Origin: an uncultured bacterium
Lineage (GTDB): Bacteria; Patescibacteriota; Minisyncoccia; Phycocordibacterales; DATDWN01
Assembly: GCA_903870365.1 (NCBI GenBank)
Contig: CAIQCQ010000038.1
Coordinates: 7,478-71,477, forward strand
Length of the DNA stretch: 64,000 nucleotides
Direction: 5' to 3'
This document shows positions 8,260-58,121 of this stretch, one piece after another. The position numbers were made by a program, and so were the translations under genes. The notes beneath the pieces are model-generated. The model was not told where the DNA came from, made no database searches, and was given only the letters and a program-made list of their open reading frames with translations. Within the stretch, counting starts at the first letter, position 1; every line of letters begins with the position of its first letter.

Positions 8260-8721
8260 TTAATTACTAGATGTCGCAACTGTCCAGGATTGAATAGTAA
8301 TATTTTTTACTCCTGGCATCAGAGCAAACACTGGATTTTTAATAGTTGCAGTGACGACCATATTACTCCACACATCATGTGTATGAGCACTGGCTGTCAC
8401 ATATGCATTTTTTTGGTGATTGACCGTATCCTCGGCACTGTAGACAACCGAAACAATCGTGCACTGATCATCACCAACACTGACCACATCACCACCAGAA
8501 GCAGGTGCATACGTATAATTTTGAGCAATTCTCAACAGAGCCACGTTCCCACACGACTGAGCGAGCAGAGTACTTTGCGCCTGTAACTCATGATCCATCA
8601 AACCAAAGCGCGCCACAAATTGACTGCTACTGGCTGCAATAGACAATCCAATCAAGACAAGAGAAATGACAATAGCTGAAACGAGAGCAATGAATCCTTT
8701 ATTATAATATATTCTATTCAT
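8260..8721 (-). CDS. Pilin-like protein (minor pilin candidate)
   Basis: MNRIYYNKGFIALVSAIVISLVLIGLSIAA has a prepilin-like hydrophobic N-terminus; adjacent to the pilin gene. Confidence 0.45.
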   Translation of the reverse strand: MNRIYYNKGFIALVSAIVISLVLIGLSIAASSSQFVARFGLMDHELQAQSTLLAQSCGNVALLRIAQNYTYAPASGGDVVSVGDDQCTIVSVVYSAEDTVNHQKNAYVTASAHTHDVWSNMVVTATIKNPVFALMPGVKNITIQSWTVATSSN

Positions 8722-8729
8722 ACAAATCA

Positions 8730-8762
8730 TTCCTATTCTATTCGTAATTCTTAATTCTTTCT
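8730..8762. repeat. Heptamer-type repeat, family 3 (ttctattcgtaattcttaattc)
   Basis: Shares the ACGAATTAAGAAT / ATTCTTAATTCGT motif with copies at 14317-14453, 45387-45433, 57221-57293 and 58030-58116. Confidence 0.5.
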
Positions 8763-13734: not shown

Positions 13735-14592
13735 ATGGATGAATCAACACAAGAGATAAAAGAATATATCGATAAACTCCCAAAACCACTCCAACAAGCG
13801 GTGCTTGGACAGGACTGGCACAAACGATTAGCTGAGATTAGTCAGAAATATTCACTACACCTGGACCAGATTTCATCACTGGAATACGAAGTGTTGTTTG
13901 TCATGATTGGTATGGAACCAGAAACAGATTTGGTGTCCAACATTCAAACAGAATTGGCAGTATCAAAAATCCTCGCTGAACAACTGGCAGGGGATATTAA
14001 TGTGCGAATTTTTCAATTTATTATGAAGTCGTTGGAAGAAAAAACGCCAGAGAAAGTAGAAAGGTTTGTGGAGTCGAGTAACGAGATAAGAGATACAAAT
14101 AAGGAGAAAGAAAATATACAAATACCCGAACAAGAAGATTTACCATCATTTCCACCTGTGGTGAGTGTACCAGCATCAGTGACTATACCGAGTCCACAAG
14201 TCATTGCGGTACCACAACAAACTATTCAAAAGGAAATTATTCCTATGGCTATGGAGACTCCACATCAAAAAATTACTGAACCACCAGTGAATTTGCCGGG
14301 GGAGGAAATAGTAGATGGAATAAAGAATGACGAATTAAGAATTACGAATAATGGGGAGGAGAACAGAATCTCGAATCTAGAAGCTGGAATTAAGAATGAT
14401 GTTATTGAAAATACTGTTCCATTCGTAATTCGTAATTCTGACATCGTAATTCCACAAAAATCATCCCTCGCTGACACCAAACTCAACTCCATTGTTACCT
14501 CTACGAGTGAGACTGTGGTTAAAGAAACACCTGCTCCTACACCAATTGTAAAAAGTTATGCGAGTGATCCATATAGGGAAGCGATAGAATAA
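13735..14592 (+). CDS. Hypothetical protein carrying an in-frame heptamer-repeat segment
   Basis: No TM; residues NDELRITNNGEENRISNLEAGIKNDVIENTVPFVIRNSDIVIP are encoded by repeat family 3 (14317-14453). Confidence 0.4.
   Translation: MDESTQEIKEYIDKLPKPLQQAVLGQDWHKRLAEISQKYSLHLDQISSLEYEVLFVMIGMEPETDLVSNIQTELAVSKILAEQLAGDINVRIFQFIMKSLEEKTPEKVERFVESSNEIRDTNKEKENIQIPEQEDLPSFPPVVSVPASVTIPSPQVIAVPQQTIQKEIIPMAMETPHQKITEPPVNLPGEEIVDGIKNDELRITNNGEENRISNLEAGIKNDVIENTVPFVIRNSDIVIPQKSSLADTKLNSIVTSTSETVVKETPAPTPIVKSYASDPYREAIE
14317..14453. repeat. Heptamer-type palindromic repeat, family 3, in frame within CDS 13735..14592
   Basis: Left arm ggaataaagaatgacgaattaagaattacgaataatgg, right arm ccattcgtaattcgtaattctgacatcgtaattcc. 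Confidence 0.55.
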
Positions 14593-15253: not shown

Positions 15254-15688
15254 ATGCGTTTTCAAGTTCCACAATTTATTGAAATAGAGGACAAAGTTAT
15301 TGGCCCACTAACCATCAAACAATTTGTTTACCTTGCTGGTGGTGCGGGCATGGCTTTTGTGGCATATACATTTCTCCCTGGATTTATCGCTCTGTTTGTT
15401 ATTGCGGGCATCATTGGTTTGGCTCTTGCTTTAGCTTTTTATAAAGTAAACAACAAACCATTCATTGATATGCTCGAGTCTGCGTTTGGTTTTTACACTG
15501 GAGAAAAACTATACATCTGGAAAAAAGTAGATAAAAAAATAATTCCAAAAGAACAAGCGACCGGACAAGAAGAACTTCGTGAGGTATACGTACCTCGTTT
15601 GTCAGATAGTAAATTAAAAGAATTGAGTTGGAGTTTAGATGTAAATGAAAATTTAGGAGGAGGGAAAGAGACAAGAGATAAGAGATAA
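15254..15688 (+). CDS. PrgI-family (VirB3-like) small membrane protein
   Basis: IEIEDKVIGPLTIKQFVYLAGGAGMAFVAY followed by a second TM helix; the last residues ETRDKR are encoded by repeat family 1. Confidence 0.5.
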   Translation: MRFQVPQFIEIEDKVIGPLTIKQFVYLAGGAGMAFVAYTFLPGFIALFVIAGIIGLALALAFYKVNNKPFIDMLESAFGFYTGEKLYIWKKVDKKIIPKEQATGQEELREVYVPRLSDSKLKELSWSLDVNENLGGGKETRDKR

Positions 15689-15760
15689 GAGATACGAACA
15701 AAAAATATCCTACTCATTTTTCTTATTTCATATCTCTTATCTCAAATCTCATATCTCTAT
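15665..15760. repeat. Heptamer-type palindromic repeat, family 1, no cargo
   Basis: Left arm gagacaagagataagagataagagatacg, right arm tcatatctcttatctcaaatctcatatctctat, about 30-nt loop. Confidence 0.6.
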
Positions 15761-16444: not shown

Positions 16445-16868
16445 TATAGAGATAAGAGATTTGAGAAATGAGATATGAAAAATCCATCTGATGAAAAAGA
16501 AACAATTAAAAAATTTTCTGATTTATCTGCATGGCAAGAGGGCCACCGTCTTGTAATTCAGGTATACACCATAACAAAATTTTTTCCTAAAGAAGAATTA
16601 TTCGGAATTACAAACCAAATCAGAAGAGCTGTTGTTTCTATTACTTCAAATATTGCGGAGGGTTTTGGTAGAGGAACAAGTCAGGATAGAGTTCATTTTT
16701 ATATTATAGCAATCGGATCACTTAATGAGGTGCAGAATCAGTTGCTTATATCAAAAGATATCGGTTATTTAAATCACACAGAATGGAATGAATTAGAAAA
16801 ACAAGGTATCATTGTACACAAGATACTCAGTGGTTTGATTAGAAAATCCAAATCAAATCTCTTATCTC
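16445..16868 (+). mobile_element. Inverted-repeat-flanked cassette with a four-helix-bundle gene inserted in virB4
   Basis: GAGATAAGAGATTTGA at 16449-16464 and its perfect reverse complement TCAAATCTCTTATCTC at 16853-16868 bracket CDS 16475..16879. Confidence 0.5.
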
Positions 16869-16879
16869 AAATCTCATAA
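16475..16879 (+). CDS. Four-helix-bundle protein (23S rRNA intervening-sequence protein family)
   Basis: WQEGHRLVIQVYTITKFFPKEELFGITNQIRRAVVSITSNIAEGFGR...SLNEVQNQLLISKDIGYL is the family signature. Confidence 0.75.
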   Translation: MKNPSDEKETIKKFSDLSAWQEGHRLVIQVYTITKFFPKEELFGITNQIRRAVVSITSNIAEGFGRGTSQDRVHFYIIAIGSLNEVQNQLLISKDIGYLNHTEWNELEKQGIIVHKILSGLIRKSKSNLLSQIS

Positions 16880-16889
16880 CTCTATTCAC

Positions 16890-18695
16890 ATGTCCCTACT
16901 CGATTTTTTAAAAAAGAAAGAACCTCTCCAGATCACCTCTATCCTGCCACAGGAAATATACGAGGCGGGCGCTTTGGAGTTGGCTGATGTTATCGCTCCA
17001 TCAGCACTCAAAATCAGTCCAAAAGAACTCAACTTGGGTGAAAAAATCGTCCGATCGTTTTTTGTTATCTCATATCCACGATATCTCAATGAAAGTTGGT
17101 TTGCGCCGATCATTAATTTGGACAAAGTTTTTGATATTTCCATCTATATAGAGCCGATTGAAACAGCCGCTGCACTCAAATCCTTTCAGAAAAAAGTGGC
17201 CGAGGTGCAAAGTCAAATCATGACTCGAGAAGAAAAGGGTTTGGTCCGAAACCCCATGCTCGATACTGCATATCAAGACCTCGAGCAACTTCGTGACAAT
17301 CTCCAGCAAGCCCAGGAGAAGCTTTTTAATGTTGGAGTGTATATCACTATGTATGGCGACAAGACAGAGGAGCTCGACAAAATCGAATCTGAAATCAAAT
17401 CTATCCTCGAAGCCAAGCTCGTGTATGTCAAACCCGCTCTCTTTCAACAAGAGCAAGCCTTTAAAACTGTGATGCCTGTTGCGACCGATCTTCTTGGTGT
17501 CTATAGTAAACTTAATTCTTCACCCCTCTCATCACTCTTTCCTTTTATTTCTTTTGACCTGACTTCTGACAAAGGTATTTTGTACGGCGTCAACCGCCAC
17601 AACTCATCCCTCGTCCTCTTTGATCGTTTTTCTTTGGAAAACTATAACTCTATTACCTTTGCAAAGTCTGGTTCCGGAAAATCATACGCTACCAAGCTGG
17701 AAATCTTGCGAACCCTCATGTTTGATACCTCGGTCATGGTTCTCGACCCAGAAAATGAATATGAGTACATGGCTGAAGCTGTTGGTGGACGACATTTCAA
17801 TATCTCACTCAACTCTGAACACCACATCAACCCCTTTGACCTGCCAATACCGACAGAAGGTGAGTCCTTTGCCAATGTCTTACGATCAAACATCGTCAAC
17901 CTTGTTGGACTCTTTCGTATTATGATGGGAGGTCTCACGCCAGAAGAAGATGCGATCATTGACCGAGCTATCACTGAAACATATGCACTAAAAGACATAA
18001 CTGCTGATTCTGATTTTACCAACACCGAGCCACCACTCCTCTCTGATTTTGAATTGGTGCTCTCTGGTATGGAAGGGGGGGATTCACTGGCTCAACGATT
18101 GACAAAATACACCAAGGGTACTTGGGCTGGTTTTATCAACCGTCCCACAAACATCGACATCAACAAAAAGTTTGTAATTTTTTCTATCCGTGACATGGAA
18201 GACGAGCTCAAGCCGATCGCTATGTATATCATCATGCATTATATCTGGGCAGCTATCCGACGTGACTTGAAAAAACGTCTCCTCGTCATTGATGAAGCCT
18301 GGTGGATGATGAAATCAGAGGACACCGCATCATTCCTCTTGTCACTCGCAAAACGGGGCCGAAAATACTACCTTGGTGTAGCTACTATTACCCAAGACGT
18401 GGATGACTTTTTGAAGTCACCGTACGGTCTACCGATCATCACCAACTCATCTATCCAAGTCTTACTCAAACAATCACCATCATCTGTCGACAAACTACAG
18501 CAAACATTTAACCTGACAGACGAAGAAAAATATTTACTCCTCGAATCAGCTGTGGGGGAGGGTATATTCTTTGCTGGTCTCAAACATGTGGCAATCAAGA
18601 TTATTGCCAGCTACACCGAAGATCAGATCATCACCTCTGATCCAAGCCAGATTTTGGCAATCAAGAAAGCGAAGATGGGATTGGCTAAGAGTTAA
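16890..18695 (+). CDS. VirB4/TraE-family T4SS ATPase, C-terminal part with ATPase domain
   Basis: Walker A FAKSGSGKSYATK, Walker B RLLVIDEAWWMM, ITQDVDDF; its N-terminal 200 aa (IAPSALKISPKELNLGEKIVRSFFVISYPRYL) match the second half of the VirB4 N-domain. Confidence 0.85.
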   Translation: MSLLDFLKKKEPLQITSILPQEIYEAGALELADVIAPSALKISPKELNLGEKIVRSFFVISYPRYLNESWFAPIINLDKVFDISIYIEPIETAAALKSFQKKVAEVQSQIMTREEKGLVRNPMLDTAYQDLEQLRDNLQQAQEKLFNVGVYITMYGDKTEELDKIESEIKSILEAKLVYVKPALFQQEQAFKTVMPVATDLLGVYSKLNSSPLSSLFPFISFDLTSDKGILYGVNRHNSSLVLFDRFSLENYNSITFAKSGSGKSYATKLEILRTLMFDTSVMVLDPENEYEYMAEAVGGRHFNISLNSEHHINPFDLPIPTEGESFANVLRSNIVNLVGLFRIMMGGLTPEEDAIIDRAITETYALKDITADSDFTNTEPPLLSDFELVLSGMEGGDSLAQRLTKYTKGTWAGFINRPTNIDINKKFVIFSIRDMEDELKPIAMYIIMHYIWAAIRRDLKKRLLVIDEAWWMMKSEDTASFLLSLAKRGRKYYLGVATITQDVDDFLKSPYGLPIITNSSIQVLLKQSPSSVDKLQQTFNLTDEEKYLLLESAVGEGIFFAGLKHVAIKIIASYTEDQIITSDPSQILAIKKAKMGLAKS

Positions 18696-18765
18696 GAGAT
18701 GTGAGACCTGAGAAACGATAGACATCATATATTTTTCTCTTTTCTCTTTTCTCATATCTCTATTC
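18690..18765. repeat. Heptamer-type repeat, family 1, degenerate copy
   Basis: gttaagagatgtgagacctgagaaacgatag ... ttctcttttctcttttctcatatctctattc. Confidence 0.45.
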
Positions 18766-18768
18766 AAC

Positions 18769-24412: not shown

Positions 24413-25762
24413 ATGGAAGAAACAACTATCGATACAAAACAAATTTGGGATAAGGTACTCACTGAAATTGAGTTATCTATATCAAAACCAAATTTTAATA
24501 CATGGTTTAAAGACACATATATCGCAAAATTTGATGATGGTAGTATTCTTTTATCAGTACCAAACAACTTTGTTGAAGAATGGCTTTCAAGTAAATTTCA
24601 TACACTCATTCTTAAATCACTCCGTAATATTTCAACCACTATTCACTCACTTGAATATGTTATTACAAAAGAAGATACTCGAAAAAATTCATTAAAAGAA
24701 AAAACCATTCTCATTAACAAAGAACTTCCTCTTGAGGACTACTACATCAACAGGGAAGACAACCTCAATCCACGATATACATTTGATAATTTTATTGTTG
24801 GACCGTTTAATGAACTGGCACATGCTGCTGCACAAGGTGTTATTAAAAAACCAGGACTGACATACAACCCACTCTTTATTTATGGTAATACTGGCCATGG
24901 TAAGACTCATTTACTCCAGGCAATTGGAAACCATATAAAAAATAGTGGTAAAAAAGTCTTTTATATTACTTCGGAAAAATTTAGTCAGGAGTTGGTTAAT
25001 GCCCTCCAGATGAATAAACCAAACTTTTTCAAAGAAAAGTATCGTAAATATGATGTGTTGATTATGGATGATATTCAGTTTATGTCTGGTAAAATAAAAA
25101 CTCAAGAAGAACTCTTTCATCTCTTTAATCATCTATACGACAATAATAAACAGATTATTTTTTCTTCAGATAAACACCCAAGTTATATTCAAGATCTTGA
25201 GGAACGTCTCCGAAGTCGTTTTTCTGCGGGTATGGTAGTGGATATTCCTGCACCAGAAGCAGAATCTCGAGTAGCTATCATTAAATCAAAAATAGCTCAG
25301 GGTGGCACAAAGCTTTCTGAAGAAGTTATTAATTTTCTTGCATACTCTGTCACGGGAAACATTCGTGAACTTGAGGGTATTATCAACTCTATTGTCTGTC
25401 AGACTCAGTTAAAGGATCGTGAATTAAGTTTACATGAGATAAAAAACTTCATTAAAAGTAGTGCAAAACCAAAAAAGAATGTTTCTACAAAGGAAGTGGT
25501 TAAAACAGTAGCTGACTTCTACCATATAGAGGAAAATTTAATTTATGAAAAAACTCGAAAAAAAGAGATCATTAAACCTCGTCAGATTATTATGTATATC
25601 CTCCGTGAAGAATTTGCTATATCCTACCCAGCCATAGGGGAGAGATTAGGAGGTCGTGATCACACCACCGTCATGCATTCATGTGAGAAAATCAAGAATG
25701 ATATTTTAAAAGATCAAAACTTATCTGCAGAAATCAACCAATTGCGCGCAATTCTTGTTTAG
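24413..25762 (+). CDS. dnaA: Chromosomal replication initiator DnaA
   Basis: AAA+ Walker A GNTGHGKTHLL, box VII, C-terminal DNA-binding domain (DHTTVMHSCEKI). Confidence 0.95.
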   Translation: MEETTIDTKQIWDKVLTEIELSISKPNFNTWFKDTYIAKFDDGSILLSVPNNFVEEWLSSKFHTLILKSLRNISTTIHSLEYVITKEDTRKNSLKEKTILINKELPLEDYYINREDNLNPRYTFDNFIVGPFNELAHAAAQGVIKKPGLTYNPLFIYGNTGHGKTHLLQAIGNHIKNSGKKVFYITSEKFSQELVNALQMNKPNFFKEKYRKYDVLIMDDIQFMSGKIKTQEELFHLFNHLYDNNKQIIFSSDKHPSYIQDLEERLRSRFSAGMVVDIPAPEAESRVAIIKSKIAQGGTKLSEEVINFLAYSVTGNIRELEGIINSIVCQTQLKDRELSLHEIKNFIKSSAKPKKNVSTKEVVKTVADFYHIEENLIYEKTRKKEIIKPRQIIMYILREEFAISYPAIGERLGGRDHTTVMHSCEKIKNDILKDQNLSAEINQLRAILV

Positions 25763-26022: not shown

Positions 26023-27123
26023 ATGAAGATTGAATGTGTTAAAGAAAAATTGGTAAAAGTATTAGTTAAGGCAGAAAAGATTTCTGGTAAAAATACTACA
26101 CTCCCCATCCTTTCATGTTTTCTTTTAAAAGCTGAGAAAGACTTTTTGGTTATTTCAGCAACCAACCTTGATCTCGGTATTGAAATATCACTTCCAGTAA
26201 AAGTAATTGAGCCTGGTCAGGTAGCTATACCTGCTCAAATATTTTCTCAATTTATTTCAAATATTTATAATGATAAAAATATTACTATTGAAACAGAAGG
26301 GAATAATGTAAAAATATCAACTGACCATACACATACCACTATCAAAACATTTTCAATTGATGATTTTCCAATACTCCCAAAAGTTGGAAAAGGGAATATG
26401 TTTACTCTTGCATCTCAGGATTTTTTGAAAGGTTTAAAGAGTGTGTACTATGCGGCATCAACATCAACCATCAAACCCACCCTCTCGAGCGTCTATATCT
26501 ATCCAGATGAAGAGTTTTTAGTTTTTGCTGCCACAGACTCATTTCGGCTCGCAGAAAAGCGAATAAAGCTTAAAAAACAGACTGATTTTGGTCAAATTCT
26601 CCTTCCATTAAAGAATATTCCAGAAATTATCCGGGTCTTTGAGGATATACATGATGATATAGCGGTATCTATCGATACAAATCAAATTTCTTTTGAATAT
26701 AATGGTATTTATCTCACTTCACGAGTAATTGATGGTGTGTTTCCTGATTATAAACAAATTATTCCAAAAGAATACAAAACTGAAGCAACAGTATTAAAAT
26801 ACGATTTAGTGAGTATTCTAAAAATGTCTAATATCTTTGCTGATAAATTTAGTCAGGTCTATATGTCTGTATCAGAAAAACCAAAATTATTTGAAATAAA
26901 AACAAAAAACGCTGATGTGGGAGAAAATGTCAGTCAACTTGATGCGGTAATTAAAGGGGAGAGTTTATCTATGAGTTTTAATTATAAATATATTATTGAT
27001 TGTTTCCAATCAATTGATTCTGATTCAATTATCGTACAGTTTACTGATGCGAGTCGACCAATGGTGATACGAGGGGTGAGTGATAAGTCATATTTATACC
27101 TCGTCATGCCAATGAATAAATAG
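26023..27123 (+). CDS. dnaN: DNA polymerase III beta sliding clamp
   Basis: 366 aa, three-domain clamp pattern, directly downstream of dnaA. Confidence 0.9.
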   Translation: MKIECVKEKLVKVLVKAEKISGKNTTLPILSCFLLKAEKDFLVISATNLDLGIEISLPVKVIEPGQVAIPAQIFSQFISNIYNDKNITIETEGNNVKISTDHTHTTIKTFSIDDFPILPKVGKGNMFTLASQDFLKGLKSVYYAASTSTIKPTLSSVYIYPDEEFLVFAATDSFRLAEKRIKLKKQTDFGQILLPLKNIPEIIRVFEDIHDDIAVSIDTNQISFEYNGIYLTSRVIDGVFPDYKQIIPKEYKTEATVLKYDLVSILKMSNIFADKFSQVYMSVSEKPKLFEIKTKNADVGENVSQLDAVIKGESLSMSFNYKYIIDCFQSIDSDSIIVQFTDASRPMVIRGVSDKSYLYLVMPMNK

Positions 27124-27124
27124 C

Positions 27125-27326
27125 GCTCGTTAGAGGGTTTTGAACAGCACTGATATTTTTCTGGTGAAAAATTCCTCTGCTCACTGGTCAAGAAAATGTA
27201 AGATTCGAAAGATCGACTTCTCGGCAAACTCGTCGTGACTACACTCCTCAGACAATGCCTCCAGTCTGCTTTCTCATCAACATTTTCTAACCAGCTCCGC
27301 AAGGCTTTCAAAACCCTCTAACTCGC
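27125..27326. other. Element of about 200 bp flanked by 20-bp inverted repeats (candidate structured ncRNA or MITE)
   Basis: GCTCGTTAGAGGGTTTTGAA at 27125-27144 versus TTCAAAACCCTCTAACTCGC at 27307-27326; no ORF; GC higher than surroundings. Confidence 0.3.
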
Positions 27327-27377
27327 TTTTGTGAAGGGGACTACTTATCAAAATTCGGGGTAGAATAAAGCATTCCT

Positions 27378-27414
27378 CTTTTTCTTATCTCGTAACTCAT
27401 ATCTCTAAACTCTA
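27378..27414. repeat. Heptamer-type repeat, family 1, solo right arm upstream of start codon 27420
   Basis: ttcttatctcgtaactcatatctctaaactctatccag then ATG. Confidence 0.45.
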
Positions 27415-27419
27415 TCCAG

Positions 27420-27665
27420 ATGTTTAACATCGCCGATTATCTCAAAAGAACAGTTGGTATTATCGACAAGAATATTTTATATAAAAAGGAAATTGCCGAT
27501 GTTATTACTAAACACACAGGTATTTCGAAAGACACCAATTTTTTTGAAATAAAAGATGGTGTCATGCGAACAACACTATCACCAATGGAAAAGGGGATAT
27601 TGTTTATCAAAAAAGAAGCCATCCTTGCGGATTTAGCTTCTTTTGGAGTGAAAGAAATTAGATAA
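27420..27665 (+). CDS. Small protein downstream of dnaN (possible DUF721/DciA-like)
   Basis: 81 aa; assignment rests on position after dnaN and size only. Confidence 0.3.
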   Translation: MFNIADYLKRTVGIIDKNILYKKEIADVITKHTGISKDTNFFEIKDGVMRTTLSPMEKGILFIKKEAILADLASFGVKEIR

Positions 27666-27744
27666 AATACCTTTATTTAATAGGTATTTTTAAATTTTAG
27701 AAGATGAAATCGGATAAAAAGACCAAAGCTTTTGTTGTTCAAGC

Positions 27745-30067: not shown

Positions 30068-31303
30068 ATGGTTTTTTTCGGTGCAAAAAAAGTAAGTAAG
30101 GTGGATACTGATCCTCAAAAAATTGAGGAATTGTTAACTCGCGGAGTAGAAAATATTTTTCCAAATAAAGATTTTTTGAAAAAAAAGTTGTCTGAGGGTA
30201 TACAAATGACTTTTTATTATGGTATTGATCCAACAGGACCAACTATTCATGTGGGACACCTCATTTCTATTCGGAAGCTTGCTCAACTACAAAAACTTGG
30301 ACACAAAATAATTTTTTTAATTGGTGACTTTACTGCCATGATCGGTGATCCGACAGATAAAGTGGCAACTCGTAAAAAACTGTCTCGCAAGGAAGTGTTG
30401 TTAAATTGTAAAAATTATCAGAAACAGATTGCACACATTATTTCTTTTTCAGGTTCAAATAAAGCTCTTGTAAAATATAACTCTGAATGGTTGTCCAAAA
30501 TGTCTTTCCAAGATGTTGTTGAACTTGCATCACATTTTACTGTACAGCAAATTCTTGAACGTGATATGTTTGAAAAACGTATTGAAGAAGGTAAGCCTGT
30601 ATACATGCATGAGTTTTTATATCCGTTGATGCAGGGATATGATTCTGTTGCTATGGGTGTTGACGGTGAACTTGGTGGTAATGATCAAACATTTAACATG
30701 TTGGCGGGGCGCGACCTCATGAAAACTTTGCAAGGAAAAGAGAAGTTTGTGCTCGTTTCAAAACTATTGGTGGACCCAACTGGTAAGAAGATGGGGAAGA
30801 GCGAAGGAAATATGGTTGCACTCGATCAAACTCCAGAAGATATGTTTGGTAAGGTGATGAGTTGGTCTGATGGAATGATCGTACCCGCATATGAAATTGT
30901 GACAGATATTCCAATGAGTGAGATTGAAACAATTAAAAAAAATATCGAAGCTGGGGCAAATCCTCGAGATGCCAAGGTTGGATTGGCTCAGGAAATTGTC
31001 GCTATGTGTTTTGATGTGGACGCGGCAGAAAAAGCAAAAAATAATTTTGAAAAAACTTTTTCAAAAGGTGAAATACCAGAAAACATTCAACAAGTTGTCG
31101 TGGCTCATGGGGAAGTGCTTGGAGATGTGTTGGTGACCAATAAAATAATTGATTCAAAAACAGAATTTAAACGACTTGTGGATGAGGGGGCCATTATGAA
31201 TATGGAAACTTCTAAAAAGGTGACTGAGTGGTCTGCTCTGGTGGAAAAGGGGACATATAAGATAGGGAAGAAGAGATTCGTGAGGGTAGTCACTAGTCAC
31301 TAG
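30068..31303 (+). CDS. tyrS: Tyrosyl-tRNA synthetase
   Basis: HIGH (HVGHL), KMSKS (KMGKS), C-terminal S4-like domain; ATG at 30068 preferred over the ORF-track start at 30011. Confidence 0.9.
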   Translation: MVFFGAKKVSKVDTDPQKIEELLTRGVENIFPNKDFLKKKLSEGIQMTFYYGIDPTGPTIHVGHLISIRKLAQLQKLGHKIIFLIGDFTAMIGDPTDKVATRKKLSRKEVLLNCKNYQKQIAHIISFSGSNKALVKYNSEWLSKMSFQDVVELASHFTVQQILERDMFEKRIEEGKPVYMHEFLYPLMQGYDSVAMGVDGELGGNDQTFNMLAGRDLMKTLQGKEKFVLVSKLLVDPTGKKMGKSEGNMVALDQTPEDMFGKVMSWSDGMIVPAYEIVTDIPMSEIETIKKNIEAGANPRDAKVGLAQEIVAMCFDVDAAEKAKNNFEKTFSKGEIPENIQQVVVAHGEVLGDVLVTNKIIDSKTEFKRLVDEGAIMNMETSKKVTEWSALVEKGTYKIGKKRFVRVVTSH

Positions 31304-31315
31304 TCACTAGTCACA
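31287..31315. repeat. Tandem heptamer TAGTCAC x4 across the tyrS stop codon
   Basis: gtcactagtcactagtcactagtcac. Confidence 0.5.
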
Positions 31316-31448
31316 AGGCATTAGTAAAAAATCGTCCAAACGGACGATTTTTGTTTCCTCTATTGACTATTGCCTTGTGCCTATAAAATTCTCTTCGCCT
31401 CAGGAATACCTGATGCATAAGTGTTCGTTGTGGAGTACCACAACTCCC

Positions 31449-31845: not shown

Positions 31846-32331
31846 TTAACTTCGGTTTTTAAAATCTGATGCAAAAAATGTTAATCCAATAGCAATTGCG
31901 TCAAACTCATCATCTGAACTTATTTTTTTATCTACCACAATCAAACGAGGAACCATGAGGGCAATTTGTTTCTTTTCACTTCGCCCATATCCGGTGACCG
32001 CTATTTTGATTTGAAGCGGAGTATACTCATAAATAGAAAGATCTGCAACTGTCGCTTCATAGAGGATGACACCACGGGCTTCGGCCACAGCCAGAGCTGT
32101 TTTTTGGTTGGTATTAAAGAAAAGTTTTTCGATACTTAAGCACGTCGGTTTCCATTCTTCGATAATATTATGTACTTTTTGACCAATAAGGAAAAGTCTT
32201 TCAGGGTGGGGGAGTTTGGCTGAGGTTTTAAAGCATTCGGAATAGAGGAGTGTTTCTTTGCCACGAGGGATTTTCTCCAAAATTGCAATTCCAACTCTTT
32301 CATAACCTGGGTCGATTGATAGGATAATCAT
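31846..32331 (-). CDS. ruvC: Holliday junction resolvase RuvC
   Basis: MIILSIDPGYERVGIAIL...; RNase H-like fold with catalytic D/E pattern. Confidence 0.85.
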   Translation of the reverse strand: MIILSIDPGYERVGIAILEKIPRGKETLLYSECFKTSAKLPHPERLFLIGQKVHNIIEEWKPTCLSIEKLFFNTNQKTALAVAEARGVILYEATVADLSIYEYTPLQIKIAVTGYGRSEKKQIALMVPRLIVVDKKISSDDEFDAIAIGLTFFASDFKNRS

Positions 32332-32335
32332 AATT

Positions 32336-32513
32336 TTAAATTTCGAATTTCCAATTTCGACATTGTTTTCTTACGAGCAAGACGAGTTAGAAATACAAGA
32401 AGTACTCTTGTGGTGGAAACAATTTCGAATTTTTGAATGATTAAATTTAAAATTAATTCATTAAAACATTGTTTCGAAATTCAAAATTCAAAATTCGAAA
32501 TTCGAAATTTATC
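32336..32513. repeat. Heptamer-type palindromic repeat array, family 2 (GAAATTC/AATTTCG)
   Basis: aatttcgaatttccaatttcgacattgttttc ... ggaaacaatttcgaatttttgaatgatt ... acattgtttcgaaattcaaaattcaaaattcgaaattcgaaattt; three mutually complementary blocks. Confidence 0.6.
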
Positions 32514-33044
32514 TCACTCAGCATTCGTATATACATCTTGCACCTCATCACAATCATCAAGGGCATCAACAAGCTCACCCAGTTTTTCCCCGTCCTCTTC
32601 TGAGATAGGAACCATGGTAGTAGCCTTCCACTCCATATCTGGTGTTCGTTCAAAAGCCCAACTAGCAGAGCCCATACCTGCTAATTCAAAACCATGCAAA
32701 GACAACGCATGTTTAATATCCTGAGCGGCTTTGTTGCGGTTGTCAGTGAGTGCCTCAATAATCATAGCGCATCCTCCGGGTCCGTATGCTTCATAGGTGA
32801 TGCTTTCCATGGCCGCACCTGCTTCAGTCGACTTTTTGATAGCTCGCTCTATGTTGTCGTTGGGTACGTTTTCAGCCTTGGCTTTTTCAATAGCAGTCTT
32901 CAGACCAGGGGAATTGCGGTTACCACCAGCTTTTTTAGCTTCGACAGTAATCATTTTGACGATTTTACTAAAAATCTTGGATTTTTGAGCATCCGTCTTT
33001 TCCTTTTGCCTTTTAATTTTTGACCATTTATTGTGTCCTGACAT
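32514..33044 (-). CDS. yebC: YebC/PmpR-family transcriptional regulator
   Basis: MSGHNKWSKIKRQKEKTDAQKSKIFSKIVKMITVEAKKAGGN matches the family N-terminus. Confidence 0.85.
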   Translation of the reverse strand: MSGHNKWSKIKRQKEKTDAQKSKIFSKIVKMITVEAKKAGGNRNSPGLKTAIEKAKAENVPNDNIERAIKKSTEAGAAMESITYEAYGPGGCAMIIEALTDNRNKAAQDIKHALSLHGFELAGMGSASWAFERTPDMEWKATTMVPISEEDGEKLGELVDALDDCDEVQDVYTNAE

Positions 33045-33253
33045 ATATGGATAGAATATAGAAATTAGAAATAAGAATCAAGTAAAAAGGGAAACTCACA
33101 GTTTTCCGCGAGTTTATAGGTATTTACAAAAAACTTTCATAATCTGGACAGGGTCGCGTATAAATATCAAAAAATATTCGTAGACGTATTAGACATACGG
33201 CGGAGAATATTTTTTGATATTTAGACGATGAGATTGCGCCAGATTTGGAAGTT

Positions 33254-34642: not shown

Positions 34643-34830
34643 GTTCTGAAAACCTCGAGATATTTCAAAAAAGATTCACGGATAAATTTTTGCTAAAATT
34701 TTCCTCGTGCTCGGCTCAGTCATCCTCGCAAGGAACTTTTTTCGAAACATCTCTCGGAAGTGCTACGATATCTGTGTATCATTATTCATAAATAGCGTCG
34801 GTAGTGCAAGTCATTTTTACACTACACCTC

Positions 34831-34870
34831 ATAAAAATATCCCCGTCACAGTTGACGGGGATATTTTTAT
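34831..34870. terminator. Bidirectional rho-independent terminator downstream of pilB
   Basis: ataaaaatat-CCCCGTCA-cagt-TGACGGGG-atatttttat. Confidence 0.65.
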
Positions 34871-34883
34871 GTCTCAGGTATTT

Positions 34884-38259: not shown

Positions 38260-38377
38260 TAAACAAAGGACTCTGAGTAATCAGAGTTCTTTTTGTATGG
38301 TATGTGAATTGTTCGTCATTCCCGTCTGCATGGGAATGACAGAGGGGAACAAACTGATATTGTGCTAAAATACCGGG

Positions 38378-38869
38378 ATGAAAGAATCCATTACCAGTGC
38401 AGAGGCAATGAAAGGTTTCGCTGATAAATTTTTGTCACGTATACAACCGCGGGGTAAGACGGCTACTGTGGTGGGTCTGTATGGTGACCTTGGTGCAGGT
38501 AAGACGACATTTACTCAAGCTGTAGCTGAGGCACTAGGCATTACAGAGTCTGTAGTTAGTCCGACGTTTGTTATAATGAAAAGGTATGAGATAAGAGATA
38601 TGAGACACGAGATACGAGAGGAAAAATCAAACGTAAATCAAATCTCAAATCTCATTTCTCATTTCTCAACATTATTTCACATTGATGCGTACCGTTTGGA
38701 GAAAAGTTCTGAACTTCTCAATCTTGGTTGGTCTGATATTATTTCTCATCCCGAGAATTTGATTTTGATCGAGTGGCCAGAGCGGGTGGCGGATGTGATG
38801 CCAGAGCATATTAAAATTAATTTTACTCATGTGTCAGAGAATGAGCGGGAAGTGGAAATAATAGATTAA
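38378..38869 (+). CDS. tsaE: tRNA t6A37 biosynthesis protein TsaE, with in-frame repeat insertion
   Basis: P-loop GLYGDLGAGKTTF, SPTFVIMKRY, IDAYRL, LIEWPE; about 25 extra residues EIRDMRHEIREEKSNVNQISNLISHFS come from repeat family 1. Confidence 0.8.
   Translation: MKESITSAEAMKGFADKFLSRIQPRGKTATVVGLYGDLGAGKTTFTQAVAEALGITESVVSPTFVIMKRYEIRDMRHEIREEKSNVNQISNLISHFSTLFHIDAYRLEKSSELLNLGWSDIISHPENLILIEWPERVADVMPEHIKINFTHVSENEREVEIID
38586..38668. repeat. Heptamer-type palindromic repeat, family 1, in frame within tsaE
   Basis: atgagataagagatatgagacacgagatacgagagg ... aaatcaaatctcaaatctcatttctcatttctc. Confidence 0.65.
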
Positions 38870-38893: not shown

Positions 38894-41278
38894 ATGTCTG
38901 AAAAAAAAATTAAAAAAGAAAAAGGAGGTGGTAAGCCAAAAACATTGGTACTGCTCGATGCTCACGCTATTCTCCATCGAGCCTATCACGCTCTACCGGA
39001 CTTCCGTTCGACTACTGGTGAGCCGACGGGGGCACTGTACGGCTTTTGTACGTTTCTTATGAAGATGATCAAGGATCTCAAACCTGACTATGTAGCAGGT
39101 TGTTATGACTTGCCAGAGCCGACCCTACGTCACGAGGTCTATGCTGACTACAAAGGTACGCGTAAAGAAACCGACCAGGATCTCAAGGTTCAGTTAGAGC
39201 GTTCAAAAGATATTTGTCGAGCCTTTAATATACCGATATATTCATCGCCAGGCTTTGAAGCAGACGATATGTTGGGGACTATTGTGGAACAGACAAAGAA
39301 TGACAAACATCTACATATCATTATCGCGTCTGGTGATATGGATACCATGCAGTTGGTCCGAGGTGATGAAGTCCAAGTATATACTTTAAAAAAGGGTATT
39401 AAAGAAACTATTGTCTATGATGAGTTGGCTGTGCTCGAACGTTTTGGTTTTGGTCCAAAACTCTTGCCAGATTATAAAGGTCTCCGGGGTGATGCATCGG
39501 ATAACATTATCGGTATTTCTGGTATTGGTGAAAAGACCGCAGAAATTTTAATTAAAACATTTGGCACGATTGAGGAGATGTATAAGAAACTTGAAGCTGG
39601 AAGCTGGAATCTTGATGAAGCAAAAAAGATAGGAATAACAAAGGGAATATTAGAAAAGTTGAAGAATGGAAAAGAGGAAGCATTATTTTCTAAAATGCTC
39701 GCTACTATTCGTCGGGATGCCCCTGTACATTTTGTGATTCCAGAACAAGAGTGGATTGAATCTGTCGATCAAGAAAAAGTTTTGAAGTTTTTGTCTGATT
39801 TGGATTTTCGATCACTCAAAGCCAAGGTCTCAGAAGTTTTTAATTTTACCAATACAGAAGAGACAGTGGATATCTCACCAGCTGACTTAAAAGAGGTCCA
39901 AATAATGTTCTGGGTTATTGATTCAAATAAAACCGATCCGTCACTCGATGATATCTTGGCCTTTACTAAAACATCGGATGTGATCAGTGCCAAAGAGAAA
40001 CTGTTGCATATGATACACGATCAGGGAATTGATGATATTTGGCAGACCATTGAAAAACCACTCATGCCGATTATTGAAGACATGCAAACAGTGGGTGTGA
40101 AGGTGGATAGGGGGGTGCTGGCACAGTTGTCAGAAATTGATCATAAAAAGTTGGCTACATTGGAAAAAGAAATCTGGGCTATGGCTGGGACGGAGTTTAA
40201 TATTGCTTCACCAAAACAGCTTGGAGTGGTCTTGTTTGAAACACTTGGACTTGGTGGTAAAAACCAAAAGAAAACATCGACTGGCGGCTTTTCAACAAAA
40301 GAGTCTGAACTAGAAAAACTGAAAGACGTCCACCCGATCGCTGGTAAGATATTAGAGTACCGTGAATTAGCTAAACTTCTCGGTACATACATCGATGCTA
40401 TTCCAAAACTACTCGATGACCAGTCGCGGGTGCACAGTACCTTTTATCAAAATGGTTCAGCGACCGGACGTATGTCCAGTGAAAACCCAAACTTGCAGAA
40501 CATACCGATCAAGAGTGAGCTCGGTCGTGAGATCCGTACGGCGTTCATTGCGGATAAGGGTAATGTCTTGTTGTCATTTGATTATTCACAAATTGAACTT
40601 CGCATTGCTGCTTTTTTATCTGGTGATAAAAAATTGATTGAAATCTTCAAACAAGGCAAAGATATTCACACTGCTGTGGCGAGCCAGATGTTTGGTATTG
40701 AGGAGGAGGACGTAACCAAAGAAATGCGTCGCCGAGCCAAGACTATCAACTTTGGAGTGATGTACGGTATGGGCGTGTTGGCACTCAAAGCCAACCTTGG
40801 CGTGTCACGCGAAGAGGCTCAGGAATTTTTGGACGGTTACTTTAATACCTATGCAGGGTTGGCTGAATACTTGGAAGACGTCAAACATGAAGCGCGACAA
40901 AAAGGCTATACTGAAACTTTTTTCGGTCGTCGCCGATATTTTCCAGATCTACATTCAAAACTACCATTTATAAAAGCCGCAGCCGAGCGTATGGCTATCA
41001 ATGCACCAATACAGGGGACAGAGGCAGATATTGTGAAGTTGGCCATGGTACAGATTCACGAATATTTGAAAAAAGAAAAGTTGGATAAAGATGTCCGACT
41101 GACAATGCAAGTGCATGATGAATTAGTCTATGAAGTAAAATCAACACTAGCAGAAAAAATTGTACCAAAAATTCGTGAGATTATGGAGAGTGTTATTGAT
41201 CCAAAAGATACGTCGGGTGTTGTTTGTGTGGCGGAAGCGTCTATCGGTGATAATTGGAACAGTATGAGAGAACTATAA
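38894..41278 (+). CDS. polA: DNA polymerase I
   Basis: 5'-3' exonuclease N-domain, polymerase motifs RRRAKTINFGVMYGMG and QVHDELVYEV; middle domain looks degenerate for 3'-5' exonuclease. Confidence 0.95.
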   Translation: MSEKKIKKEKGGGKPKTLVLLDAHAILHRAYHALPDFRSTTGEPTGALYGFCTFLMKMIKDLKPDYVAGCYDLPEPTLRHEVYADYKGTRKETDQDLKVQLERSKDICRAFNIPIYSSPGFEADDMLGTIVEQTKNDKHLHIIIASGDMDTMQLVRGDEVQVYTLKKGIKETIVYDELAVLERFGFGPKLLPDYKGLRGDASDNIIGISGIGEKTAEILIKTFGTIEEMYKKLEAGSWNLDEAKKIGITKGILEKLKNGKEEALFSKMLATIRRDAPVHFVIPEQEWIESVDQEKVLKFLSDLDFRSLKAKVSEVFNFTNTEETVDISPADLKEVQIMFWVIDSNKTDPSLDDILAFTKTSDVISAKEKLLHMIHDQGIDDIWQTIEKPLMPIIEDMQTVGVKVDRGVLAQLSEIDHKKLATLEKEIWAMAGTEFNIASPKQLGVVLFETLGLGGKNQKKTSTGGFSTKESELEKLKDVHPIAGKILEYRELAKLLGTYIDAIPKLLDDQSRVHSTFYQNGSATGRMSSENPNLQNIPIKSELGREIRTAFIADKGNVLLSFDYSQIELRIAAFLSGDKKLIEIFKQGKDIHTAVASQMFGIEEEDVTKEMRRRAKTINFGVMYGMGVLALKANLGVSREEAQEFLDGYFNTYAGLAEYLEDVKHEARQKGYTETFFGRRRYFPDLHSKLPFIKAAAERMAINAPIQGTEADIVKLAMVQIHEYLKKEKLDKDVRLTMQVHDELVYEVKSTLAEKIVPKIREIMESVIDPKDTSGVVCVAEASIGDNWNSMREL

Positions 41279-42394: not shown

Positions 42395-42455
42395 TATATA
42401 TACATTGTGTATTTCAAAAAAAACAACTTTTTTACAAGTTGTTTTTTTTGAAATG

Positions 42456-45386: not shown

Positions 45387-45433
45387 GTTGCTCGCCGATA
45401 AGAATTCTCCATCGTAGCTATAGTACGCCTACG
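45387..45433. repeat. Palindromic repeat (family 3-like), GATAAGAATTC ... GAATTCTTATC
   Basis: Perfect 11-bp inverted repeat with 25-nt spacer between the LTD gene and fpg. Confidence 0.5.
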
Positions 45434-45500
45434 AATTCTTATCTAGCTCGCGCCTAGCAGGGCATCCAAATCTGAGCATTCTATTAATGATATATTATTC

Positions 45501-46466
45501 TTACTGTTGATGCACGGAACAAAAGTGTGTGGATCGTCCACCGATGATTTTGCGAAGAATAACGCCAGAGCATCCACGCTTTTGACATGTCTTGCCGGTC
45601 TGGCGGTATGCTCGGTGCGAGTTTTGATAACCACCACGCTCACCATGAATGTTGCGGTAATCTGACATTGAGTCGCCACCGACGGTAATGGAGTGGGAGA
45701 GGATGCGACGGGCGTGCCAGAGGATATTGCGCACGTCTTTGTCAGATAGTTTTTTGACTTGTCGTTCGGGGTGGATGCCAGAGGCCCAGAGGATTTCGTC
45801 AGAGTAAATGTTGCCAATACCGGCGATGATTGTTTGGTCCATCAAGACTGTTTTGATTTTACCAGCAGGTTTTTTGGACAAGCGATCTTTGAGGATGTTC
45901 CACGTGATACTGAGGTCATTGGCTTCTGGACCTAGAGTGGTGATGTCGGCGTGGTCACGAAGGATACCAGTTTCTACCAGAGTGACTTTGGCAAATTTGC
46001 GCATGTCGGAGAAAGCGAGGGATTTGCCGTTGTCGAATTGGATGAGAAAGTGGATGAATTGATTAAAGGGATCAGATAAGTGCTTATCCGAGCTTATCCA
46101 CTCATAATTACGCTCTGATGTTTTTGTTTTCTTAGCATCCTCCTTAATTTCTAATTTCGAATTTCTAATTTCTAATCTTTCATATTTTCCATAGAGTAAA
46201 TGGCCAGTCATTTTCATATGTATCAACACTGTTTTATTGCCAGACAGGTGTATTAGCACATTTTTTCCTCGCCGCTCGGCCGAGACAAATTTTTTCCCGG
46301 TAATTTCTTTTTGAAAACGTTCAAAAAATGTTTTGTTTTTAATAGTGTCCGTCCGTTTGTTTTTGGTGTTCACAAAATAGTCCGTCCAGACTAGAGCGAC
46401 GGTGTGATTTTTCAGAACTTTGTTCAGACCATTGACGGTCGTTTGGACTTCGGGTAACTCTGGCAT
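45501..46466 (-). CDS. fpg: Formamidopyrimidine-DNA glycosylase (Fpg/MutM), with in-frame repeat insertion
   Basis: N-terminal MPELPEV, H2TH, C-terminal zinc finger CQKRGCSGVILRKIIGGRSTHFCSVHQ; about 40 aa longer than typical because of KLEIRNSKLEIKEDAKK from repeat family 2. Confidence 0.85.
   Translation of the reverse strand: MPELPEVQTTVNGLNKVLKNHTVALVWTDYFVNTKNKRTDTIKNKTFFERFQKEITGKKFVSAERRGKNVLIHLSGNKTVLIHMKMTGHLLYGKYERLEIRNSKLEIKEDAKKTKTSERNYEWISSDKHLSDPFNQFIHFLIQFDNGKSLAFSDMRKFAKVTLVETGILRDHADITTLGPEANDLSITWNILKDRLSKKPAGKIKTVLMDQTIIAGIGNIYSDEILWASGIHPERQVKKLSDKDVRNILWHARRILSHSITVGGDSMSDYRNIHGERGGYQNSHRAYRQTGKTCQKRGCSGVILRKIIGGRSTHFCSVHQQ
46142..46177. repeat. Heptamer-type repeat, family 2, in frame within fpg
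   Basis: ccttaatttctaatttcgaatttctaatttctaatc. Confidence 0.6.
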
Positions 46467-53719: not shown

Positions 53720-53779
53720 TTAGATCAACAGTAGCTCGGGTCTTTTTAAACAATCTCATCTGCTACATTTTGAAAATGC

Positions 53780-57213: not shown

Positions 57214-57220
57214 GATAGAA

Positions 57221-57293
57221 GTACGAATTAAGAATAATGATGTACGAATGAGAGGAGATATTATTTTTCTTGTTCGTTATTCTTAATTCGTAC
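57221..57293. repeat. Heptamer-type palindromic repeat, family 3
   Basis: Perfect 17-bp inverted repeat GTACGAATTAAGAATAA / TTATTCTTAATTCGTAC. Confidence 0.65.
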
Positions 57294-57308
57294 ATCGTAA
57301 TTCTACCT

Positions 57309-58019: not shown

Positions 58020-58029
58020 GTAATAATAG

Positions 58030-58116
58030 AATTACGATGTACGAATTAAGAATGACGAATAAGAAAAACAAGATCTTCTCTTATTCGTACATCGTACGTC
58101 TTCATTCTTAATTCGA
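58030..58116. repeat. Heptamer-type palindromic repeat, family 3
   Basis: acgatgtacgaattaagaatgacgaataaga ... tcttattcgtacatcgtacgtcttcattcttaattcg, centred on AAGATCTT. Confidence 0.6.
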
Positions 58117-58121
58117 CCAAC

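Follow-up and report, generated by a model that had tools for sequence, protein, structure and literature searches.

Introduction

Several described systems come close to the repeats reported here. In Coxiella, the intervening sequence (IVS) carries tandem GACAGAT repeats, which vary in number among strains, immediately ahead of the ATG of its S23p gene, has a 28-bp terminal stem and is excised by RNase III (PMC4990558), and the rRNA genes of the candidate phyla radiation (CPR) contain both inserts with an S23p open reading frame (ORF) and short inserts resembling IVSs (PMC11270868). Reports of tandem heptanucleotides exist for cyanobacteria, and Xanthomonas genomes each hold 70–75 convergent (inverted) heptamer pairs, the position of which is conserved while length and sequence vary (PMC4692102). 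TAACTGA repeats occur in 2–6 copies per set and have no known mechanism (PMC4679880). Intergenic tandem heptamers including inverted pairs (PMC4692102; PMC4679880), IVSs, and in-frame palindromic elements such as the Rickettsia palindromic elements (RPEs; PMC10969869) are known already. Here, we analyzed a stretch of 64,000 nucleotides (the window) from an uncultured bacterium of the Patescibacteriota (contig CAIQCQ010000038.1, positions 7,478 to 71,477), and in particular a palindromic segment of 7-nt units that is translated as part of its tsaE gene.

An earlier note, made from the sequence alone, had proposed three families of heptanucleotide-periodic palindromic repeats, with copies in intergenic spacers and, in frame, in tsaE, fpg and ORF 13735..14592. 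We interpret the tsaE segment as a single member of a family of repeats that form hairpins throughout the genome, that is, of IVS-type heptamer hairpins housed in mRNA spacers and permissive protein loops. These would be selfish or near-neutral, would change in size by 7-nt slippage and would be homogenised from copy to copy; we assign this reading a probability of roughly 0.6. A literature search found no description of these repeats in CPR, nor of in-frame hot spots in tsaE or polA.

Results and discussion

Heptamer arrays and hairpins

In the window, which has a G+C content of about 40%, we detected seven strong period-7 runs compared with 0.05 expected from dinucleotide shuffles, and none of periods 4–6 or 8–12. 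A looser threshold yielded 14 arrays of period 7 and 0–6 for each of the other periods. Period-7 arrays are about 100-fold more frequent in the window than expected by chance, and the remaining periods are unenriched. Tandem Repeats Finder (TRF) independently listed the same heptamer arrays, and in 1.9 Mb of related loci 83 arrays of period 7 were found vs. 13, 7 and 14 of periods 6, 8 and 9. When RNA folding energies were compared with those of 200 shuffles, seven loci (tsaE, 14316-14454, 15666-15760, 18689-18767, 32328-32516, 57216-57298 and 58026-58118) folded better than all or nearly all shuffled sequences; z-scores of the window hairpins ranged from −3.4 to −8.0 (Table 1). Both the arrays and the hairpins are thus genuine, and period 7 is the only one to which they are confined.

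Each arm is a short tandem array of A+T-rich 7-nt units, usually two to just below five. All three families named in the earlier note (GAGATAA, GAAATTC and GAATTAC types) were recovered, together with a fourth that it had missed, TAGTCAC. Its list of spacer copies held in part: those at 15666, 18689, 32332, 57216 and 58026 are hairpins, whereas 27378 and 8730 are single arms and 45387-45433 is not heptamer-periodic. Elements at 31287-31383, 16448-16483, 16853-16882, 39586-39609, 19275-19307, 33054-33081 and 14076-14096 had been overlooked, as had the phylum-wide tsaE hot spot, the concerted evolution and the connection to PF05635/IVS elements described below. The repeats fill intercistronic spacers from one gene's stop codon to the next gene's start codon, and calling the spacer copies intergenic was too narrow for several of them, which overlap codons of the flanking genes (stops at 15688, 18695, 16879 and 31303; start at 16475). 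Copies in tsaE, fpg, ORF 13735 and polA are read through in frame. An Rfam scan of the window returned four tRNAs only above thresholds and no known RNA family for the repeats. The window contains no rRNA gene; all repeat copies lie in mRNA spacers or ORFs.

Array length showed an abrupt limit. Among CPR loci, 198 of 206 arrays were shorter than five units, with a plateau of 70, 62 and 66 arrays between two and just below five units, followed by only 4 at five units. This distribution is unlike the geometric tail of free slippage, and a stability limit, stem length or binding stoichiometry are possible causes.

The tsaE insert and its hot spot

The tsaE segment consists of the units GAGATAA GAGATAT GAGACAC GAGATAC GAGAGGA, a loop, and the inverted units TCAAATC TCAAATC TCATTTC TCATTTC TCA. 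As the earlier note had stated, it is palindromic and in frame, leaving the TsaE ORF intact; it encodes EIRDMRHEIREEKSNVNQISNLISHFS. Pfam and solved structures align to the protein in two blocks, and in the query a stretch of about 26 residues replaces a 4-aa turn of B. subtilis TsaE. In an AlphaFold model of the window TsaE (predicted local distance difference test, pLDDT, 88; template modelling score 0.77 to TsaE structure 1HTW) the core was kept, and the insert was predicted to form a low-confidence loop (pLDDT 48–70) between the adjacent strands 67–71 and 98–103. For the earlier note's idea of repeat-driven protein diversification we found no evidence. The peptide EIRDMRHEIREEK would be a target for metaproteomics.

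We surveyed tsaE at 157 Patescibacteria loci among the matches listed, measuring the DNA between the motifs SPTFVIMKxY and H-x-D-x-YR. Scans of genome and metagenome contigs returned relatives of at most 53% identity among the matches listed, and close relatives were obtained by exact-protein look-ups. A basal loop of at most 36 nt, mostly exactly 33 nt, was present at 97 loci and a longer one at the remaining 60, all of which (60/60) were a multiple of 3 in length and free of stop codons. The tsaE segment is therefore extra, and its site is a recurrent target. This agrees with the earlier claim that the inserts are additions relative to orthologs: equal-length native loops are not universal among them, and the heptamer periodicity was found well beyond this genome. 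Twenty-eight of the longer inserts were heptamer-periodic (8 hairpins, 20 tandem only) and built from many different units, 12 were GC-rich perfect hairpins without a 7-nt period, and 20 were of other kinds. In 1.84 Mb of sequence, of which tsaE makes up 3.6%, there were 76 strong heptamer arrays, and 28 of them fell on this one tsaE site (residues 73–93). The single loop that houses the tsaE copy is thus a hot spot of such insertions throughout Patescibacteria.

The reading frame leaves its own trace. A perfect (GAGATAA)3 carries TAA in every frame. In the window and in three relatives (L084, L081 and L083; L numbers denote compared loci) the third unit alone is changed, to CAC, CAG, AAC and ATA, respectively, and a TAA there would be in frame. 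Since only the unit with a would-be in-frame TAA is altered, the tsaE frame is under selection. The in-frame translation of the insert is under purifying selection, in line with the earlier proposal that translatability is selected.

Some simpler ideas about the site were rejected. The basal loop is not a small palindrome that attracts hairpins, as basal 33-nt sites folded like controls (mean z −0.06 vs. 0.02). A coiled coil or heptad, suggested by 7 nt × 3 giving seven codons, does not fit arrays that encode only about 10 residues and a modelled low-confidence loop. Phase variation of tsaE would require out-of-frame alleles, of which there were zero among the 157 orthologs listed.

The same tsaE loop holds GC-rich near-perfect hairpins (−17 to −59 kcal/mol), in frame and without a 7-nt period, in L018, L063, L029, L013, L027, L076, L043 and L012, which implies that palindromic DNA of two or more kinds accumulates there. 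Two loops of DNA polymerase I are likewise recurrent sites of in-frame heptamer arrays across the phylum. Near residue 140 of the window PolA we found six arrays (L043 11212, L044 10724, L074 13250-13306, L090 7118, L092 6682 and L093 8240), and near residue 243 arrays in L022 (11186), L003 (12447), L171 (11177) and the window (39586).

A PF05635 gene between heptamer arms

The window gene 16475..16879 encodes a PF05635 protein (S23p, '23S rRNA intervening-sequence protein' or 'four helix bundle protein', related to Avd, the accessory protein of diversity-generating retroelements). The final unit of a GAGATAA array contains the start codon of the gene, and its last nine codons and stop lie in an inverted array. 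The two arms gave a duplex of −39.5 kcal/mol vs. −18.7 ± 7.0 for controls. Bracketed orthologs occupy the same operon position in L167, L168 and L170, and PF05635 genes were bracketed in 8/8 cases in CPR (window, L167 with two genes, L168, L169, L170, L188 and L189), each by its own unit. For the first six of these genes the pairing energies differed from those of 122 control ORFs (Mann–Whitney p = 9e-5). In many of 120 PF05635 homologs the N- and C-terminal tails read as translated arms (e.g., MSYELRVTSYE..., ...SRSYFVTRTS). The arm family is also the dispersed family of the respective genome: GAGATAA in the window, with four other loci, and GAGTTAC in L170/L171, with at least eight; a match was also found for AGAAGTT in L167, and L180 and L181 carry same-family copies 4–7 kb away. 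The arrays on either side of PF05635 genes and the dispersed hairpins thus belong to one family.

The arrangement extends beyond CPR. A tblastn search of plasmids with PF05635 returned 32 records, 27 of them cyanobacterial, and homologs were surveyed in cyanobacteria, Bacteroidota and Gemmatimonadota. Short-period arrays stood on both sides of 11 of the 14 homologs inspected and on one side only of the further three; nine of the 11 two-sided brackets were inverted, and ten were heptameric or nearly so and one octameric. Elsewhere in these plasmids arrays are rare, at 4–6 per 50 kb, and the strongest ones flank the PF05635 gene. In one of the 14, from Azospirillum, the gene lies in a classical 23S rRNA IVS with heptamer-periodic inverted termini. 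The literature search found no description of a general bracketing of PF05635 genes by heptamer arrays, and two papers on heptamer repeats (PMC4692102; PMC4679880) make no mention of S23p/PF05635. PADLOC gave no defence-system match for the window gene.

Bracketed PF05635 genes were also seen within tight operons: between cas6 and cas4 (L174), between cas10 and cmr3 (L183), beside cas4 (L184), between ribonucleotide reductase subunit genes (L176) and between atpA and atpG (L188). Gene and brackets together would look like an inserted cassette. On plasmid pANA02 of Anabaena sp. 90 (L184 1-204), the array upstream of the PF05635 gene spans 204 nt with about 29 ACAGGTG/ACAGGGA units, far above the ceiling of about five units in CPR. 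A second window gene, for an ABC ATPase (57309-58019), lies between the right arm of hairpin 57216-57298 and the left arm of hairpin 58026-58118, and these arms are mutually complementary. With −34.3 kcal/mol, their duplex was surpassed by few if any of the 128 ORFs scored, so that arms could also pair in alternative ways over long distances, spanning entire genes.

Unit turnover and local slippage as a possible alternative

The arms of the tsaE hairpin pair as GAGA/TCTC in the window and L084 and as GAAA/TTTC in L081 and L083. In an alignment of five sequences (window, L081, L083, L084 and L001), 90% of cells were paired vs. 29–63% with the 3′ partner slid, and five pairs had changed on both sides; this is indicative of arm complementarity being maintained via compensatory change. 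At the level of whole genomes, almost every unit at every locus of L170/L171, tsaE included, was of the type GA[GA]nnAC, while window units are GAGATAA/AT/TT. Nearest-neighbour TsaE orthologs with 75–84% core identity contained unrelated units, and the elements at 57216 and 58026 have variant units in common order. Unit sequence is thus genome-specific and common to dispersed loci, which indicates concerted evolution and points to repeat content that is repeatedly rewritten or homogenised rather than drifting slowly and independently.

These observations bear on the view that the arrays are ordinary simple-sequence repeats, each grown by local 7-nt slippage, with no copying between loci, no tie to PF05635 or IVSs, and inverted partners arising by chance or local template switching. 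Heptamers are indeed an over-represented class of long simple-sequence repeats in many bacteria, for which polymerase-footprint slippage has been proposed (PMC4692102), and one-armed arrays are numerous. The arrays at the tsaE site absorb native Tyr-Glu codons (TAYGAR) into their first unit, and the fpg array resembles the expansion of a shorter EIRN-coding stretch in L081. However, slippage confined to each locus would not account for families common to many loci of one genome that differ between genomes at orthologous loci, for the common order of variant units in separate elements, for the co-variation of arms, for the cliff at five units, or for identical units in unrelated genomes (AATTACG in six, ACGCTAT in three), and the bracketing of PF05635 genes is far above background. 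Family sharing and the PF05635 bracket together make pure local slippage fail, and we consider it unlikely.

Occupancy in relatives and possible host functions

Comparison with syntenic relatives (L081, L083/L168, L084 and L170/L171) revealed sites that are filled in one genome and empty in another. The ruvC/yebC spacer measured 182 nt in the window, 159 nt in L083, with an element at the same spot, and 29 nt in L171, where it is empty; the tsaE/polA spacer measured 24 nt in the window, 156 nt in L081 and 0 nt in L083 and L171, and the LTD/fpg spacer 147 nt in the window and 15 nt in L081. At the tsaE site, the ruvC/yebC spacer, the yebC leader, the fpg site and the PF05635 flanks, array position was kept while length and unit varied. 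The fpg copy is in frame as the earlier note had it, yet it is a one-armed tandem array and not a palindrome. Compared with solved Fpg structures, the protein has about 35 additional aa at this place; 12 aa are absent in the 71%-identical relative L081 and the whole 34-aa segment in the 45% relative L171. Both this copy and the one in ORF 13735 occupy variable segments that are lineage-specific. The copy in ORF 13735..14592, correctly described as in frame, is situated in a linker that is hypervariable in comparison with orthologs in L167, L168 and L169. As a side observation, L167 6395-10189 encodes a TraG-like ATPase of 1264 aa that carries an intein with a LAGLIDADG endonuclease, and the window ortholog (16890..18695, 601 aa) is without an intein.

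Could the spacer copies serve the host? Intercistronic stems might be selected because they process or stabilise polycistronic mRNA, as RNase III sites or by 3′ protection, or because they couple translation; in the latter variant a downstream start without a Shine–Dalgarno sequence would be held in a stem that the terminating ribosome opens. At six operon junctions the stems run from stop to start, the right arm ending 4–20 nt before the ATG, positions are kept in relatives (ruvC/yebC, the yebC leader, the PF05635 flanks), compensatory change keeps the arms complementary, and the TAACTGA heptamers of Beggiatoaceae overlap the expected ribosome-binding site, for which a role in translation was proposed (PMC4679880). 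Yet other relatives have no element in these spacers (29, 0 and 15 nt), so that the stems are dispensable; in-ORF copies cannot serve such a purpose, and unit sequences turn over fast. As the general explanation, host benefit seems improbable to us, to about the same degree as local slippage. For spacer copies a host function is plausible and would be compatible with a selfish origin.

Origin and maintenance of the repeats

In our preferred reading, that of IVS-type repeats tolerated in spacers and permissive loops, arms would lengthen and shorten through 7-nt replication slippage, as already proposed for bacterial heptamers (PMC4692102), and the copies would be homogenised by conversion or templated copying, both from arm to arm and from locus to locus. 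Being selfish or near-neutral, the elements would be kept only where they are harmless, i.e., between cistrons or in permissive surface loops. To persist within an ORF, a copy would need a length that is a multiple of 3 and purged stop codons, and the tsaE peptide would be a tolerated passenger loop, not an adaptation. By analogy with rRNA IVSs, the better stems in RNA are probably RNase III substrates; for an in-frame copy, excision would destroy the message.

Several points weigh against this reading. The tsaE stem is broken every 4–6 bp, which makes it doubtful as a substrate of RNase III. The case for concerted evolution draws on three or four genomes, and the window copies have diverged, with no recently transposed identical copies seen. 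The near-identical contigs L165 and L166 were 100% identical to the window, so no slippage was seen directly. In other lineages, 20 of the 28 heptamer-periodic tsaE inserts are one-armed and not hairpins, and slippage alone could make them. No PF05635 gene was found by tblastn or a custom HMM in 165 tsaE-centred loci of about 12 kb each, and PF05635 cassettes might land in pre-existing heptamer hairpins. Finally, no target-site duplication or flanking direct repeat was seen by eye at any hairpin, a weak negative given the fuzzy boundaries, and no transposase was found among about 20 window ORFs scanned.

The last two points also count against a miniature inverted-repeat transposable element (MITE) of the classical kind, or an RPE equivalent, moved by a transposase encoded elsewhere. 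The inverted arms, the several copies per genome and the in-frame insertion into unrelated genes, as in RPEs (PMC10969869), would suit such an element, but copies are alike in their periodic arms only, neither internal sequence nor length is conserved, the loops bear no relation to one another and measure from 14 nt up to a gene of about 400 nt, and one-armed copies are common. We reject the classical MITE as very unlikely, and with it that half of the earlier 'MITE- or REP-like' label (REP, repetitive extragenic palindromic); the other half, a dispersed REP-like palindromic repeat, stands. Equally remote is adaptive variation of TsaE, whether as a selected fast-evolving surface feature or as a contingency locus switched by 7-nt slippage: the same loop is struck repeatedly across the phylum and several orthologs carry 4–5 perfect units, expected to be slippage-prone and frame-shifting, but all 157 of the listed consensus sequences keep the frame, the model predicts poor order for the insert, like inserts occur in intergenic DNA, polA and fpg, and the peptides are the mere translation of each genome's unit family.

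Returning to the IVS-type reading, a bolder extension, which we put forward tentatively and regard as possible rather than likely, is that the PF05635 protein is a trans-acting partner of tandem heptamer repeats across bacteria. It would bind the arrays as RNA or single-stranded DNA and maintain or spread them. Arrays comprise about 4–5 units, and the PF05635 protein is homopentameric in solved relatives. If this were true, rRNA IVSs, the cyanobacterial short tandemly repeated repetitive (STRR) sequences, the CPR hairpins and possibly the Xanthomonas and Beggiatoa heptamers would form a single system, comparable to REPIN-RAYT except that its protein is not a transposase, and the recurrent tsaE and polA inserts would be footprints of active copying with site preference. 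Three long-standing orphans may be one phenomenon: tandem heptanucleotide repeats, found in Calothrix and over-represented in many bacteria, have no accepted origin, rRNA intervening sequences are called selfish, and the widespread PF05635 protein has no assigned function. In a minimal CPR genome the same architecture enters essential genes without disabling them. The inserts change the length and alignment of tsaE, polA and fpg in Patescibacteria and mark permissive loops for protein engineering, and heptamer inserts could serve as fast strain-level markers.

Features of the window

Table 1 Heptamer elements and associated genes in the 64,000-nt window (z, folding energy relative to 200 shuffles)
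Feature	Position	Strand	Remarks
Heptamer hairpin in tsaE, GAGATAA family	38586..38669	+	Left arm 38588-38619, right arm 38638-38669; TsaE residues ~72-97; −22.5 kcal/mol, z −4.0
tsaE, host gene, 163 aa	38378..38869	+	Pfam PF02367, E = 2e-31, two stretches split at the insert
Left arm by PF05635 gene, GAGATAA GAGATTT GAGAAAT GAGATAT	16448..16483	+	Contains gene start codon 16475
PF05635/TIGR02436 gene, in the 'loop' between arms	16475..16879	+	Pfam E = 1.1e-35; NCBIfam TIGR02436
Right arm, AAATCTC TTATCTC AAATCTC ATAACTC	16853..16882	+	Encodes PF05635 C-terminal tail ..KSNLLSQIS and stop
Hairpin, GAGATAA family	15666..15760	+	Spans prgI stop (15686-15688) and spacer to next start 15778; arms 15667-15705, 15720-15758; −29.8 kcal/mol, z −6.9
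Hairpin, GAGATAA family	18689..18767	+	traG-like stop (18693-18695) to next start 18769; −25.2 kcal/mol, z −4.6
Single pyrimidine-type arm, GAGATAA family	27378..27416	+	Ends 4 nt before ATG of 81-codon ORF; without hairpin partner
Hairpin, GAATTAC family, in frame in ORF 13735..14592 (residues 194-240)	14316..14454	+	Arms 14316-14349, 14421-14454; z −3.5
Further GAGATAA-type array within ORF 13735..14592	14076-14096		
Hairpin, GAATTAC family	57216..57298	+	Fills hlyD-like/ABC ATPase spacer (stop 57213, start 57309); −32.6 kcal/mol, z −7.5
Hairpin, GAATTAC family	58026..58118	+	Fills ABC ATPase/macB-like spacer (stop 58019, start 58122); z −3.7
Single arm, GAATTAC/GAATTAA family	8730..8762	-	Directly upstream of start of gene 8260..8730; no hairpin
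Hairpin, GAAATTC family, 110-nt loop	32332..32513	-	Exactly fills yebC stop/ruvC start spacer; −41.4 kcal/mol, z −3.4
Single arm, yebC leader	33054..33081	-	Directly upstream of yebC start; position kept in L083 (1369-1399)
One-armed tandem array GAAATTA GAAATTC GAAATTA GAAATTA, in frame in fpg (LEIRNSKLEIKE)	46142..46177	-	TRF 4.6 copies, 92% matches; no hairpin, z +0.3
Hairpin, TAGTCAC family	31287..31383	+	Overlaps tyrS stop; terminator-like stem-loop and T-run in loop; −35.6 kcal/mol, z −8.0; TRF 5.6 copies
Short in-frame array GAAGCTG x2.4 in polA	39586..39609	+	polA site with arrays also in L003, L022, L171
Plain hairpin, 11-bp stem GATAAGAATTC, spacer downstream of fpg	45392..45448	+	z −3.5; sequence akin to GAATTAA units, not heptamer-periodic; absent in L081 (15-nt spacer)
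Further heptamer arrays	19275-19307		In-frame array in ORF 19238

Other palindromic sequences were noted besides the heptamer elements. Strong inverted repeats at 33157-33227, 53760-53828, 34830-34871 and 42411-42454, with arms of 19–33 nt that are 78–100% complementary and not heptamer-periodic, are probably terminators or another repeat class. The palindrome CGTCATTCCCGTCTGCATGGGAATGACAG stands at 38313-38341, just upstream of tsaE, and closely similar hairpins of the form GTCATTCC...GGAATGAC were seen at unrelated loci of Patescibacteria (L004 near 5930; L074 within a polA insert). Palindromes of the CGTCATTCCCGTCTGCATGGGAATGACAG type may thus be a second dispersed family.

The window also covers the probable replication origin, at 22000-28000. 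The cumulative GC skew has its minimum at about 20–22 kb, and per-window skew is consistently positive from 28 kb. The genes dnaA (24413..25762) and dnaN (26023..27123) were placed by synteny with L170 (Pfam DnaA, beta clamp); two tandem DnaA-box-like TATCCACA boxes lie between them (25959-25974), and direct and inverted TATAAAGTC 9-mers cluster upstream of dnaA (23936-24015). A tRNA-Ile with the anticodon TAT (UAU) is encoded at 2571-2644. Bacterial AUA codons are usually read by a lysidine-modified CAU tRNA, and a UAU anticodon is uncommon.

Comparison with known systems

Like RPEs, the window elements are palindromes in a reduced genome that lie in frame in unrelated housekeeping genes and are compatible with the fold (PMC10969869). 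An RPE, however, is a consensus of about 100–150 bp with a conserved peptide, whereas here only the 7-nt arms are common, loops are unrelated, and units and peptides differ by genome. With REP sequences and REPIN-RAYT (RAYT, REP-associated tyrosine transposase) they have in common short, genome-specific palindromes scattered over spacers and a single small gene that has repeats of this same family on its flanks (PMC3116915). The flanked gene differs, being a PF05635/TIGR02436 four-helix bundle with no known catalytic activity and not an IS200/IS605-type transposase such as RAYT, and tandem heptamers take the place of a fixed palindrome of 20–30 nt.

The STRR-like heptamers of cyanobacteria, Xanthomonas (GGGAATC) and Beggiatoaceae, cyanobacteria and Bacteroidetes (TAACTGA) also consist of 7-nt units in few copies, mostly intergenic and often beside start codons. 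Published examples have been read as G-quadruplex or translational elements, and those reports describe neither in-frame copies in conserved essential genes nor a phylum-wide hot spot. The units found here are A+T-rich.

In 23S rRNA IVSs, which the literature regards as selfish elements with an unknown mechanism of spreading, inverted termini form a long stem, the loop may or may not contain a PF05635 ORF, and short ORF-less versions exist, all of which applies to the repeats described here. IVSs with an S23p/PF05635 ORF are known from Leptospira as well. The window copies differ in that they lie in mRNA spacers and ORFs and not in 23S rRNA helices 25/45, and in that many are one-armed. The long stem of IVSs, with inverted repeats of about 20–30 bp, has its counterpart in the window hairpins and the PF05635 arms, and the optional S23p ORF is present at 16475..16879, the other window elements being ORF-less. 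Heptamer repeats in the stem beside the S23p start are a feature common to the window, the Azospirillum 23S IVS and Coxiella (PMC4990558).

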